64,000 nt of DNA from Candidatus Latescibacterota bacterium (GTDB lineage Bacteria; Latescibacterota; UBA2968). This document shows positions 51,001 to 54,000 of this stretch, piece after piece. Location of the stretch: the NCBI GenBank assembly GCA_965116885.1, contig OZ220741.1:2816001-2880000 (forward strand). Reading direction: 5' to 3'. A program made the position numbers. Numbering within the stretch: the first letter of the stretch is position 1; each line of letters begins with the position of its first letter.

Positions 51001-54000
51001 CTGGTGCGAAGCATATATGGATGTGCCCGCGATTGGGTTTGGTCATTGCGCAAAATCCAGGTCTGTGGGATCAGTTCAGGGAAGAGCAGGATAAGGTCGG
51101 GAGCCAGAATGAGGTGATTGCGCGAGTTGTGAATGCGGTAAAGGAATAGGGAGGATATATAGATGGATGCAAAAACCAAAAAATTGCAGGTGGATCAGGC
51201 TGTGAAATCGCAGTCGCGGCGGGCGTTTAAGCTGTCGCGGCGTATTCACGGCTGGGCAGAGCGGCCGTTTCGGGAATACGAGTCGTCGAAGGCGTTGGCG
51301 GCGTATTTGGAGGAGAACGGATTTCAAATTGAATTTCCGTGGAAAAATATCCCGACGGCTTTTCGCGCTATATGGGGCACGGGCAAACCCTCTATTGGCA
51401 TGTTGGGGGAGTACGACGCATTGCCCAATTGCGGTGCCGAGGAGGGCACCTGGGGCCACGGCTGAGGTCATAATCTTTTGGGCGTTGCCCCGGCCGCAGG
51501 TGCGGTTGCTGCAAAGACAGTATTGGAAAATTTGAAATCATCCGGCCAGATTATTTATTACGGCTGTCCGGCCGAAGAGACGCTGGCGGGTAAGGTGTAT
51601 ATGGCCCGCGATGGCGCGTTTCGAGATCTGGATGCGGTGCTGGCATGGCATCCGGGATCGGGTACAGGTGTTAGCAATTATGGCGGTTCGTCGCTGGATT
51701 CTCTGGTGTATGAGTTTTTTGGCAAGACGTCTCACGGCGCGAGTGCTCACAATGGGCGCAGTGCATTGGACGGGGTGATGTTGATGGATGTTGCGGCGAA
51801 TTATTTGCGCGAGCACGTTCCCGAAAATGTGCGTATCCACTGCGTGATTCGGGATGGCGGGGATGCGCCCAATGTGGTGCCGGCTTATGCGAAGGTGTGG
51901 TACTATGTGCGGGGGAAGGATCGCGAACAGGTGAATAAAGTACGCAAGCGATTGACCAAATGCGCCAAAGGTGCGGCGATGGCCACGGAAACGACTATGA
52001 AATGGCATCGTATCACGGCTGTGTACCCGCGTTTGCCAAATGATGTGATGTGCGAAACTGTGCGTCAAAATCTCGAATTATTCGGTCCGCCGCGTGCTTC
52101 TAAAAAAGATAAGGAACGCGTAAAGGAATTGGGATACAAAGGTGAATTTGACGGGAAGATCAAAAAGGGGAAGGGTTCACAGGGGCGCGGGTCTTCGGAT
52201 GAAGATAATGTGTCATGGCTGGCACCGATGGGGCGGTTTCAGATGGTGTGTTATACAAAGGGCACGCCGGGTCATCACCGCGATACGACCGCACAGGCAG
52301 TAATGCCTTTTGCCGAGCGCGCGATTTTGCAAACGGCCAAGGTGTTTGCGGGGTCGGCTCTTGATCTGATTTTGGACAACAAGGTGTTGCAAGCAGCGCG
52401 TGCGGAATTTAAGAAGGGAACAAAGGAGTTTGAGTACGATCCGCTGATTCCGAAGCGCCAGAAGGTTCCCGTGGATCCTCCATAGAAGGAGATGAGATTT
52501 GAAAACACAAAGATTAATATGCACAGATGTCCGGCGGATTGAATTAGAGGACGTTGATTTGCCGCGTGTGCCAGACAATGGCATTTTGGTGCAGAATGAT
52601 TATACTGCCGTGAGTGTGGGTACGGAAATTTACAATTATGCACACGGGGGTGAACCGTCGCGTGCGAGGACATTTCCGCGGCCAACGGGATATTGCAATA
52701 CGGGTGTGGTGCTCGAGGTGGGCAAAGATGTGAAGGGGATAGAACCCGGTGATCGCATTGCTGCGCAGGGCAATCACGCCAGTCATGCCGTTTTGAGCGG
52801 GAATTTTCTCAAGACTCCCGAAGGTGTTTCGCCCAGGTCCGCGGCTTTTATGGTTATGTGTGCGATTGCCATGCACGGGCATCGGGTTGGACGTCCGGAG
52901 TTGGGCGAGGTTGTTGCAATTACCGGTATGGGTATTGTGGGCCAGTTAGCAGCGACCTTTGCGCGGTTGGCTGGCGCGCTTCCGGTTATTGCGATTGATC
53001 TGGATGATTTTCGGTTGGGTAAGGCGAGAGATCGGGGGGCAGATGTTTGTGTCAATCCCAGTACTACAGAGGATGTCGCCGAGGTGGTGCGCGAGCATTG
53101 CGTGGGCGATGGTGTCGATCTGGTTATTGAAGCAACGGGTATTCCAGCGGTTTATCCCATGGCGCTGACTTTACCCCGGTTGGGTGGCCGTCTGGTCGCG
53201 TTGGGGTCTCCGCGCGGTACCGTAGAAGTGAGTTTTTTGCCCGAGGTTCACTTGCGCGAGATCACAATTCTGGGCGCACATCAGCCCAAGACGCCGGATA
53301 ATGACCATATTTATTATCCGTGGAGCAAGCACAGAGATCGCGAGCTAATTTTGCGTTTGATGGCTGCGGGCAAGTTGCCCATCGAAGATTTGATTACCCA
53401 TGTTGTCAATCCCGTCGATTGTCAGGCTACCTACGACATGCTCGCCGATAATCCCAGAGAAGCGTTAGGCGTGGTATTTGAGTGGAGGTGATCTCGCCTG
53501 CTAAAATAAAATCCCTGTCAGAACCATAGAGGAGATCGAATATGAGACACCACTCTTTTGGAAATCGTGCTGCTGTAAAGGTTTTCGGATTCTATCTTCT
53601 TTTATTTTTCTCATTCTCTTTCTTTGCTAATATCGGGAAAGTTTTCGCACAAGTCTCACAAAGCAGAGGTTTGGCTTCACAGATGTCAGAGAGAGCAACC
53701 ATTAAAAATTACAAGTACGGCCCCCATGAGCGGAACGTATTTGATTTTTATCCGGCACAATCAGACGAACCCACCCCTGTTGCTGTGTATATTCACGGCG
53801 GCGGTTTCAGAAACGGCAGCAAGGACGGGATTAATAATAAGACGTTGAAAGCTTTATTAGATGCGGGCATTTCTGTCGCGGCTTTTAACTATCGCTATGT
53901 CCAGCAGGCTCCTTTGCCTGCTGCGCACTACGATTGTCGCCGAGCGCTTCAGCTTCTGCGTTCCAAAGCCACCGCATGGAACATCGATAAAAATCGGATC

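Follow-up and report, generated by a model that had tools for sequence, protein, structure and literature searches.

A UGA codon within a gene of a Candidatus Latescibacterota bacterium is, with high probability, a genuine selenocysteine (Sec) codon, and the gene would encode an M20D metallo-amidohydrolase or dipeptidase with a selenolate at its metal site. Comparison of the gene with its orthologs indicates that selenium is very probably inserted at this codon, codon 101. The enzyme would carry the selenolate at its metal centre because residue 101 takes the place of the metal-binding cysteine of the M20D family; a bond between selenolate and metal is suggested by analogy with the cysteine enzymes. 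The gene lies in a window of 64,000 nucleotides, the whole stretch of DNA that was analysed, and positions are counted from its first letter (Table 1).

Table 1. Features of the M20D locus in window positions, with the tRNA-Sec gene in contig positions
Feature	Position	Strand	Remarks
Shine-Dalgarno-like GGAGGA	51150..51155	+	Read in the sequence, 7 nt 5′ of ATG
M20D amidohydrolase CDS, 440 codons + TAG	51163..52485	+	Single frame, one internal TGA
UGA codon 101, predicted selenocysteine, in place of the metal-binding Cys of HxCGH	51463..51465	+	TGA in 55/55 orthologs
His103 codon, second residue of the U-x-H metal motif	51469..51471	+	Invariant in 34/34 alignment rows and 47/47 ungapped Sec forms
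Small hairpin GGGC-GUU-GCCC, possibly an accessory SECIS part	51480..51490	+	Loop spans +22 to +24, counted from the UGA's first base
Candidate bacterial SECIS, 7-bp stem CGGCCGC/GCGGUUG	51491..51508	+	Apical loop AGGU (51498-51501), 32 nt past UGA
Glu138-Glu139 codons (PAEE), catalytic base and metal ligand by homology	51574..51579	+	Invariant in 34/34 rows and 47/47 Sec forms
His163 codon (WHP), putative metal ligand	51649..51651	+	Invariant in 34/34 rows and 47/47 Sec forms
His371-His372 codons (PGHH), putative last metal ligand	52273..52278	+	Both invariant in 47/47 Sec forms
Zn-dependent alcohol-dehydrogenase-family gene	52499..53491	+	PF00107 and PF08240; 13 nt 3′ of the M20D gene
tRNA-Sec	C1:607506-607599		70.1 bits; ARAGORN: SeC, anticodon TCA

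Reading frame and conservation of the UGA codon

The genome-wide survey's note had joined two called genes, g02494 and g02495, into one 440-aa gene read across an in-frame TGA, and the sequence bears this out. The frame 51163-52485 holds exactly one internal stop, the TGA of codon 101 in the motif WGHG-U-GHN, and ends on TAG at 52483-52485. Under translation table 11 the same stretch is read as two ORFs, 51163-51465 (100 aa) and 51478-52485 (335 aa, from a TTG start). A Shine-Dalgarno-like 4-mer is found 5-16 nt 5′ of the start codon in 43 of 55 orthologs.

The order-level search covered 53 genomes, with the source genome among them. A full-length match, 70%–97% identical and with exactly one TGA, is present in 49 (our genome and 48 others), which reproduces the earlier count of 48 out of the 52 other UBA2968 genomes, and the TGA is codon 101 within WGHG*GHNLLG (asterisk, TGA) in 49/49. 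The terminal stops of these orthologs are TAG (38) or TAA (11) and never TGA. The four genomes that had been listed as having no match (G001, G002, G005 and G021) indeed contain only stop-free paralogs that are ~30% identical. Throughout the phylum, 55 of 168 Latescibacterota genomes have TGA at codon 101.

The distribution of the Sec form extends beyond the order UBA2968. It is also seen in 6 genomes from another order of the same class, and pattern matching in metagenomes returned 51 contigs, 32 of which have the TGA form and 18 of which are chance matches. A gut metagenome contig (L221) encoding a 41% identical M20D protein with TGA at the same codon was considered as a second independent Sec lineage and rejected. 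It is a lone record and is attributed to a lone mutation or an error because relatives that are 99% identical, such as the full-length P0123 (from a cluster of 247 sequences), have Cys and because the conserved block described below is missing.

The TGA had also been described as aligned to a cysteine of homologs, and this holds wherever we looked. Cys stands opposite the TGA in all 103 full-length proteins (at least 400 aa) among the best 120 database matches, the aligned codon is TGC or TGT in 73/73 non-TGA loci, and residue 101 aligns with a Cys of HmrA, PM20D2, ILL2 (1XMB) and YxeP. Sec and Cys orthologs reach 82% identity. Cys forms (P0002-P0004, P0014 and P0015) sit nested within the Sec clade, so Sec and Cys have been exchanged more than once, either in both directions or repeatedly.

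Candidate SECIS element and readings of the UGA codon

That hairpins follow the TGA had been noted before; two of them lie side by side at 51480-51490 and 51491-51508, the second within the published bacterial SECIS (bSECIS) criteria. A 30-nt block past the TGA has its synonymous sites frozen and folds into the 7-bp hairpin with its (A/G)GGU loop. Third-position entropy at four-fold codons is 0.55 in codons 102-117 (12 codons) vs. 1.39 elsewhere in the gene (139 codons). The window of lowest entropy in the whole gene is codons 107-116, a value equally low in 0 of 100,000 permutations, and codons 107-114 hardly vary at their four-fold third positions. The conserved block was not found in the Cys-form loci, including L080, which is 68% identical.

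The bSECIS model describes a loop of 3-9 nt with G in one of its first two positions on a stem of 4-16 bp, 16-37 nt from the UGA and with a minimum free energy of -7.5 kcal/mol or lower (PMC13188914 Fig. 2). The larger hairpin agrees with this model in all four published criteria, with an AGGU loop (G at position 2), a 7-bp stem, a spacing of 32 nt, near the far end of the allowed range, and an energy of -9.4 kcal/mol (range -9.4 to -11.4 kcal/mol). Its bases pair in 99.8% of cells vs. 35%–63% when the partner strand is slid. The small hairpin has all 4 pairs invariant in 48 distinct sequences and alone reaches only -4.6 kcal/mol, which falls short of the energy criterion. Covariation is nearly nil: 9 of 11 hairpin pairs never vary, a single pair has changes on both sides (3 cells), and the covariation score was reached by 27 of 500 shuffles. 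The 32 metagenome copies added only the loop variants AGGC and UGGU, with no compensatory stem changes, and an Rfam scan of 51300-51700 (E up to 10) returned three chance-level matches and no SECIS family. Thus, the candidate SECIS is supported by extreme conservation and by its fit to the model, not by covariation.

Hairpins of a similar kind are found past the UGA of two other selenoprotein genes of this genome, selD (7 bp, GGU loop) and an AhpC/TSA gene with a UxxC motif (8 bp, GGUC loop), and the loop in the M20D gene lies 12-14 nt farther from the UGA than in either. A scan of the genome for a UGA with a GGU-loop hairpin yielded 52 candidates; when Pfam was run on the 20 longest, the AhpC/TSA gene was the one clear further selenoprotein, while 16 of the others had no Pfam match and in 3 the domain did not include the TGA. 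The E. coli fdhF-type SECIS is likewise a hairpin within the ORF past the UGA, with a small apical loop carrying G and then G/U; the M20D gene differs from it in the 32 nt spacing near the upper limit and in the second, small conserved hairpin ahead.

The Sec machinery reported for this genome is present: the tRNA-Sec gene is found, and SelA (580.5 bits, cut-off 268), SelB (384.7 bits, cut-off 242) and SelD (369 bits, cut-off 125) are above their cut-offs. SelD is of the Sec type and has an in-frame TGA of its own. In the proposed mechanism, SelB with Sec-tRNA(Sec) would bind the hairpin at 51491-51508, and perhaps also the small hairpin ahead of it, and would thereby deliver selenocysteine to the UGA of codon 101 and allow the full-length 440-residue enzyme to be made.

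Stop-codon read-through can be stimulated by downstream structure. The UGA could then be read without selenium, by a near-cognate Trp- or Cys-tRNA or a suppressor, with the conserved block serving read-through or mRNA stability, and the scarce covariation and the distance of the hairpin, greater than in the SelD and AhpC/TSA genes, would suit such a reading. We consider it improbable, however. SelB is above the cut-off in 53 of the 55 genomes with the TGA form, the two misses being fragmented MAGs (91% and 84% completeness), whereas no SelB match was found in G154, the only genome in the class whose ortholog has Cys, nor in its congener G155. The GGU-type loop is common to the two other selenoprotein genes of the genome, and the hairpin fits every constraint of the bSECIS model. 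Trp at residue 101, a metal-ligand position, would also be expected to inactivate the enzyme because even the change from Cys to Ser does so in a plant relative, according to a passage of the ILR1 study (PMC8149794).

A real stop, which would make the locus a pseudogene or a split gene whose products are an N-terminal fragment of 100 residues and a C-terminal protein of ~335 residues with a start of its own, is very improbable. Gene callers do split the locus: as had been stated, the nearest relatives are called as fragments that start past the TGA, which applies to 17 of the best 120 database matches (294-336 aa). Re-initiation also finds possible signals in the sequence, with an in-frame TTG 4-5 codons past the TGA in 28 of 55 sequences, preceded by the GAGG of a Shine-Dalgarno-like TGAGG; in 42 of 55, TTG or GTG occurs in frame 4-11 codons past the TGA. 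The distance from the TGA to the next start codon is not constant, however, but ranges from 4 to 46 codons, and 55 genomes of two orders, together with 32 metagenome contigs, carry the TGA at this very codon and show no second lesion. Purifying selection acts on both gene halves, 5′ and 3′ of the TGA, with a dN/dS of 0.09-0.34 in codons 1-100 and of 0.06-0.13 in codons 102-440 (8 of 10 pairs, those with finite dS on both sides). A C-terminal product would have neither residue 101 nor His103, which are essential in relatives as far as the passage on ILR1 describes them (PMC8149794). A truly accidental TGA looks otherwise, as L221 illustrates with its single occurrence, its 99% identical relatives with Cys and its missing conserved block.

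That the TGA stems from faulty assembly or sequencing, or from a genetic code altered across the whole genome, can be practically dismissed. Nothing specific favors either beyond the fact that the genome is apparently metagenome-assembled. Fifty-five genomes and 32 metagenome contigs show the TGA independently of one another, and an RNA-library contig that bridges it (X7, 818 nt, 51355-52170) has no difference at the TGA codon among the 40 differences listed (67 more lie beyond these). The code is not changed because TGA ends 1310 of the 3177 stop-to-stop frames that are 300 codons or longer in the genome. Metatranscriptome contigs from four runs map onto the gene; the libraries may contain DNA and the contigs carry neither level nor strand, and they are not proof of transcription, just as gaps in their cover carry no meaning.

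Fold, metal site and gene neighborhood

The protein had been called an AbgB-like M20 amidohydrolase, and only the second half of this name stands. The protein matches TIGR01891 with 194.5 bits against a cut-off of 153.75 (NCBIfam), which makes it an M20D amidohydrolase, and PF07687, the inserted dimerisation or lid domain, matches residues 183-271. The AbgB name is a mere database label that stems solely from JGI annotations of homologs. There is no AbgB model among the 8 NCBIfam matches (E up to 0.01), and 3IO1, an aminobenzoyl-glutamate utilization protein of the AbgB type, is the weakest of 8 PDB sequence matches. The abg operon includes an AbgA-type second M20 subunit and the transporter AbgT. 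Neither was found adjacent to the gene among the six ORFs scanned around it, which encode an SMC protein, an MR_MLE enolase-superfamily protein, a beta-lactamase-fold protein, the Zn-dependent alcohol dehydrogenase (Zn-ADH), an esterase and a sulfatase.

The Zn-ADH gene is the most persistent neighbor and the only one that persists within the order: tblastn matches it in most of the ortholog loci there, but not next to the Cys forms or to the 6 Sec forms from the other order. No neighbor is common to the loci of the order and to the other-order Sec forms or the Cys forms. Against acid-sugar dehydratase models, the MR_MLE protein scored far under the cut-offs, and the beta-lactamase-fold protein matched no NCBIfam model.

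The predicted structure (pLDDT 90.5) has a TM score of 0.81-0.91 to HmrA (3RAM), and the best fold matches of the model are HmrA, PM20D2, CsAga and 4EWT. HmrA of S. aureus and human PM20D2 (7YH4, 8XZC) are also the best sequence matches (E 3.8e-41 and 7e-37) and the nearest solved relatives, with a fold TM of 0.77-0.91 at an identity of only 26%–27%. They share with this gene the two domains, GH-x-C-GHN, PAEE and the other conserved His, and differ in having Cys at the place of the UGA. HmrA cleaves Met-X dipeptides and PM20D2, a beta-alanyl-lysine/Xaa-Arg dipeptidase, basic dipeptides; by analogy with these two, and by analogy only, the substrate here is probably a dipeptide or an N-acyl amino acid. 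CsAga (6SLF) and the plant enzymes ILR1/ILL2 (1XMB) belong to the same M20D family and are distant (16%–20% identity in the fold alignment). The Cys of ILL2 (1XMB) aligns with U101, and the literature found on CsAga and on plant ILR1/ILL2 contains no report of a Sec form. Sapep (PMC2937973) was dropped as a comparator since it belongs to a different M20 subfamily.

The survey's note had named this cysteine as a metal ligand from general knowledge of M20D structures, and the publications on two relatives now lend support. As described in part of the CsAga study, the cysteine of this M20D enzyme bridges both zinc ions (PMC11511702). The ILR1 study states, in the passage concerned, that Cys137Ser abolishes activity and that the Cys coordinates metal (PMC8149794). 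U101 is linked to the bridging Cys of CsAga (6SLF) through the common HxCGH motif. In the enzyme proposed here, the selenolate would replace the thiolate in the hydrolytic metal centre beside His103, Glu139, His163 and His371, and Glu138 would be the general base. The EE motif is one that has been named for M20D (PMC7804941), and His163 would correspond to His197 of ILR1 by its position in the order of motifs (passage in PMC8149794). His371, also invariant in the 34-row alignment, may be a ligand as well, judging from its conservation.

Proposed role of selenium in a hydrolytic metal centre

Selenocysteine directly ligates the catalytic metal in FdhA (Mo/W) and the [NiFeSe] hydrogenases (Ni), which also have Cys homologs (PMC13188914). 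Both carry out redox chemistry at a single redox-active metal site, unlike the enzyme proposed here, for which we suggest amide hydrolysis at a binuclear centre, of the Zn/Mn/Co type by homology. Two hydrolase-like, computationally predicted selenoprotein families that are not classical thiol oxidoreductases, one UshA-like and the other related to the C-terminal (glutamine amidotransferase) part of CTP synthase, are included in PMC13188914 (Table 1). Their folds are unrelated and their motifs are CxU, CxxU and GxUxG; neither is an M20 or MH-clan peptidase. The earlier statement that an M20 amidohydrolase is missing from the 2026 inventory agrees with the list of 119 selenoprotein families in Table 1 of that paper, which has no M20 or peptidase family, though this comparison may not have taken in the family table of the BSepDB supplement. 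The words peptidase, amidohydrolase, hydrolase and M20 have 0 occurrences in the text of PMC13188914. No selenoprotein-specific NCBIfam model was matched by the protein.

We see an even chance that this is the first metallohydrolase from nature whose binuclear hydrolytic centre has a selenolate, in place of a thiolate or carboxylate, as ligand and probable bridge, and that it represents a long-kept non-redox use of Sec in a marine and sponge-associated clade of Latescibacterota. Selenium could benefit such an enzyme through, e.g., a lower pKa, a preference for softer metals or resistance to irreversible oxidation. If the reading is true, selenium would tune the metal choice, ligand pKa or oxidation tolerance of a hydrolase. 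For chemists, the Sec and Cys orthologs would provide a natural Se/S pair with which to study the effect of a selenolate on a binuclear hydrolytic centre.

The finding also matters for annotation. In public data the gene is mis-annotated as a fragment of 320-336 aa. The enzyme is therefore absent from functional profiles of the Latescibacterota, those of sponge-associated members among them. Catalogues of selenoproteins that are built by homology look for known families only and would miss the family added here. To our knowledge, nearly all known selenoproteins are redox enzymes or binders of redox-active or toxic metals. The enzyme would add a hydrolase to this mostly redox roster, and Sec at the place where an amide hydrolase holds its catalytic metals would extend the known uses of selenium.

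An M20D reading frame with an in-frame UGA

The gene under study reads as 440 codons in one frame ending in TAG, and its sole internal stop is a TGA at codon 101, within the motif WGHG-U-GHN; re-reading it confirmed the coordinates, motif and single TGA given in the genome-wide survey's note. Under the standard code the frame is split into a 100-aa ORF and a 335-aa ORF with a TTG start. His103, Glu138, Glu139, His163, His371 and His372 are invariant in all 47 ungapped orthologues with this TGA (selenocysteine, or Sec, forms) and in a mixed alignment of 34 rows. For the 8 of 10 orthologue pairs with finite dS on both sides of the TGA, dN/dS was 0.09–0.34 in codons 1–100 and 0.06–0.13 in codons 102–440. 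On sequence grounds, both halves of the gene appear to be translated. Past the TGA, the distance to the next in-frame ATG, GTG or TTG varies between genomes from 4 to 46 codons, and a downstream start would give a product without residue 101 and His103.

Features discussed in the text (window positions unless a genome or locus is named)
Feature	Location	Strand	Description
M20D frame	51163–52485	+	440 codons
In-frame TGA	51463–51465	+	codon 101
GGAGGA	7 nt before ATG of M20D gene	+	read from the sequence
Hairpin 1	51480–51490		GGGC-GUU-GCCC; fold of conserved block
Hairpin 2	51491–51508		CGGCCGC-AGGU-GCGGUUG; fold of conserved block
Neighbouring genes	48971–51149, 52499–54510		enolase-superfamily, beta-lactamase-fold, Zn-ADH, esterase and sulfatase genes
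SelD (loci L001, L071)	G000:C1:607506–608627 (window genome)	-	own in-frame TGA, motif SCGG-U-ASK
AhpC/TSA (PF00578) selenoprotein, L164	G000:C1:462859–465216 (window genome)	-	TGA in VIGWS-U-TRC (UxxC)
L221 TGA (gut metagenome contig)	L221:401–423		lone TGA at M20D Cys codon; adjacent G run also differs from relative

The genetic code of the window genome is standard, since TGA terminates 1310 of its 3177 long open frames. TGA is the commonest stop of these frames, in contrast to the true terminators of the 49 order orthologues (L009–L057 and the window gene), which are TAG in 38, TAA in 11 and TGA in none. In 49 of the 53 genomes of order UBA2968, the window's own included, there is a match over the full length, 70–97% identical and interrupted by exactly one TGA, which reproduces the order-wide pattern described in the survey, and in 49 of 49 this TGA is codon 101 within an identical motif. 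Only ~30% identical paralogues were found in the remaining four (G001, G002, G005 and G021). The one-TGA form occurs in 55 of 168 Latescibacterota genomes, and six of the 55 fall in a different order within the window genome's class. Stop-free relatives are a 68% identical orthologue in G154 and 43–47% identical homologues in six genomes. One Sec form (72% identical), L086 (JAPPJY010000011.1, equal to G008:C82), bears the submitter label 'Gemmatimonadota bacterium', at odds with the genome grouping, which puts it in the window's own order. Searching metagenome contigs for GHG-UGA-GHN(L/F) gave 51 matches: 32 copies of the M20D gene (75–97% identical across as many as 238 aa), 18 chance matches and L221. 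The UGA at codon 101 is conserved, and an accidental origin is rejected.

Homologues carry Cys opposite the TGA, as the survey had claimed. Among the best 120 matches in a collection of 5.8 billion proteins, all 103 full-length proteins (56–82% identical) have Cys at this column, and the other 17 are shorter calls starting after the TGA. At the DNA level, 79 further homologue loci comprise the six other-order Sec forms with TGA and 73 others, all with TGC (48) or TGT (25). A candidate second Sec lineage, L221 (41% identical, TGA at the same codon), was rejected: its 99% identical relative P0123, which represents 247 clustered sequences, is a full-length protein that has Cys there, and L221 lacks the conserved hairpin block. 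Its TGA is most likely a mutation or sequencing error, and L221 shows what an accidental TGA at the M20D codon looks like.

RNA signal and selenocysteine machinery

Thirty nucleotides at +18 to +47 from the UGA (51480–51509) are near-invariant although the proteins differ by up to 30%. In 47 of the 49 genes (L050 and L056 were left out for length), third-position entropy at conserved four-fold-degenerate codons is 0.55 in codons 102–117 (n = 12) versus 1.39 elsewhere (n = 139); codons 107–116 are the gene's lowest-entropy window, and entropy was as low in none of 100,000 permutations. The block folds into two hairpins. In an alignment of 55 sequences (48 distinct rows), 99.8% of paired cells hold a pair, versus 35–63% with the partners slid. 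One variable position is GC in 33 rows, GU in 11 and AU in 3, with one mismatch, and another is CG in 27 and UG in 21. Since 9 of the 11 hairpin pairs do not vary and the covariation score was matched by 27 of 500 shuffles, the hairpins are supported by conservation and not by compensatory change.

The bacterial SECIS (bSECIS) model describes a 3–9 nt loop with G in its first two positions, a 4–16 bp stem, a distance of 16–37 nt from the UGA and a minimum free energy of -7.5 kcal/mol or lower (PMC13188914). Hairpin 2, a candidate bSECIS, lies within all four constraints, with an AGGU loop, a 7-bp stem, 32-nt spacing and -9.4 kcal/mol. Its loop varies to GGGU, UGGU, AGGC and GGGC, and two common variants have energies of -11.4 and -9.3 kcal/mol; hairpin 1 alone reaches only -4.6 kcal/mol. 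No Cys form has the block, not even L080, which is 68% identical and comes from the same class. The survey's hairpins after the TGA are thus present, and its account of the Sec machinery likewise stands, with tRNA-Sec, SelA, SelB and SelD all above cut-offs in the window genome.

SelD, ~100 nt from the tRNA-Sec gene, is here a selenoprotein in its own right; its SECIS, AUCCAGC-GGU-GCUGGAU, has a 7-bp stem and a GGU loop at +24. In L164, which looks unannotated, an AhpC/TSA domain precedes five DUF1573/HYDIN-like Ig repeats; its hairpin has an 8-bp stem and a GGUC loop, at +22 from the U of the UGA, and the protein is consistent with the catalogued Prx-like UxxC family. The M20D hairpin loop, at +36, is farther from the UGA than either. 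A simple scan of the window genome for in-frame TGAs accompanied by a hairpin with a GGU loop yielded 52 candidates; further selenoprotein genes may be among 30 of them.

Of the 168 phylum genomes, 128 have SelB above cut-off. Among the 55 that carry the TGA form the number is 53, and the remaining two, G036 (91% complete, 430 contigs) and G029 (84%, 500 contigs), are both fragmented MAGs. SelB had no match in G154, the class's only genome with a Cys orthologue, or in its congener G155; these genomes are 86% and 90% complete, so the missing match does not establish true SelB loss.

Enzyme identity and genomic setting

The product matches TIGR01891 'amidohydrolases' (194.5 bits, cut-off 153.75) and contains the M20 dimerisation domain of Pfam. 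Among solved structures the nearest in sequence is HmrA of S. aureus (3RAM, E 3.8e-41), followed by human PM20D2 (8XZC/7YH4, E 7e-37), with ILL2, 4EWT, YxeP, CsAga and lastly 3IO1 ('aminobenzoyl-glutamate utilization protein') far behind. An AlphaFold model built from 34 homologues (mean pLDDT 90.5, pTM 0.90) reproduces this ranking in its top fold matches, with HmrA and PM20D2 at TM 0.77–0.91. Family profile, domain, sequence and fold thus place the product in the HmrA/PM20D2 branch of M20D enzymes. The survey's 'AbgB-like' is a mere label in some JGI annotations and was dropped: 3IO1 comes last among the PDB matches, and the NCBIfam matches include no AbgB model, no selenoprotein-specific model and nothing more specific than TIGR01891 near its cut-off.

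In peach ILR1, an M20D enzyme, Cys137Ser abolishes hydrolysis, and residue 137 is set around the metal with His139, Glu172, Glu173 and His197, according to PMC8149794, which also cites earlier work that gives the corresponding Cys in ILL2 of B. rapa a metal-coordinating role. It is this Cys that residue 101 matches in the alignments with ILL2 (1XMB), YxeP, HmrA and PM20D2. By homology the selenolate would likely be a metal ligand; it may be a bridging one, given the HxCGH motif shared with CsAga (6SLF), an M20D enzyme in which the Cys bridges two zinc ions (PMC11511702).

The beta-lactamase-fold gene overlaps the enolase-superfamily gene by 17 nt, and the Zn-ADH gene, the only neighbour kept through most of the order, lies 13 nt downstream of the M20D gene. 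The enolase-superfamily product matched acid-sugar dehydratase models only well below cut-offs; its gene also recurs beside orthologues in a second family. None of these neighbours is found beside the other-order Sec forms or beside the Cys forms. Sequence near-identical to window 50900–52700 occurs mainly in sequencing runs that several studies labelled as sponge metagenome, which suggests a sponge-associated lineage. Contigs of four metatranscriptome libraries, which can contain DNA, cover the M20D gene, one bridging the UGA.

Evolution and novelty

Two trees were built. The one from FastTree has 132 rows: 103 Cys proteins, six Cys loci and, with L077 and near-duplicates excluded, 23 of the 55 Sec forms. 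The other, a quick IQ-TREE tree, covers a 50-row subset. In both, all Sec forms fall in one region that also contains a few nested Cys forms; the larger tree has five of these (P0002/P0003, P0004 and P0014/P0015). Both need four changes between Sec and Cys, at least three of them forced by starred branches. Because all Sec forms have the SECIS block in common, the simplest reading of these unrooted trees is that Sec was gained once and later reverted to Cys several times.

Computation still regularly yields new selenoprotein families. The survey's statement that this one is missing from the 2026 inventory holds: none of the 119 families or subfamilies in Table 1 of PMC13188914 is listed as M20, peptidase or amidohydrolase, and that review nowhere uses the terms 'peptidase', 'amidohydrolase', 'hydrolase' or 'M20'; nor do the main texts of BSepDB 2026 (111 families) and deep-Sep 2025. 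No M20 enzyme containing Sec turned up in full-text literature searches. For about one fifth of known selenoprotein families, conserved residues are predicted to be binding sites for metals or other groups (PMC13188914). We consider the M20D gene very probably a genuine selenoprotein gene, and what would set its product apart is that its chemistry is hydrolytic, not redox.
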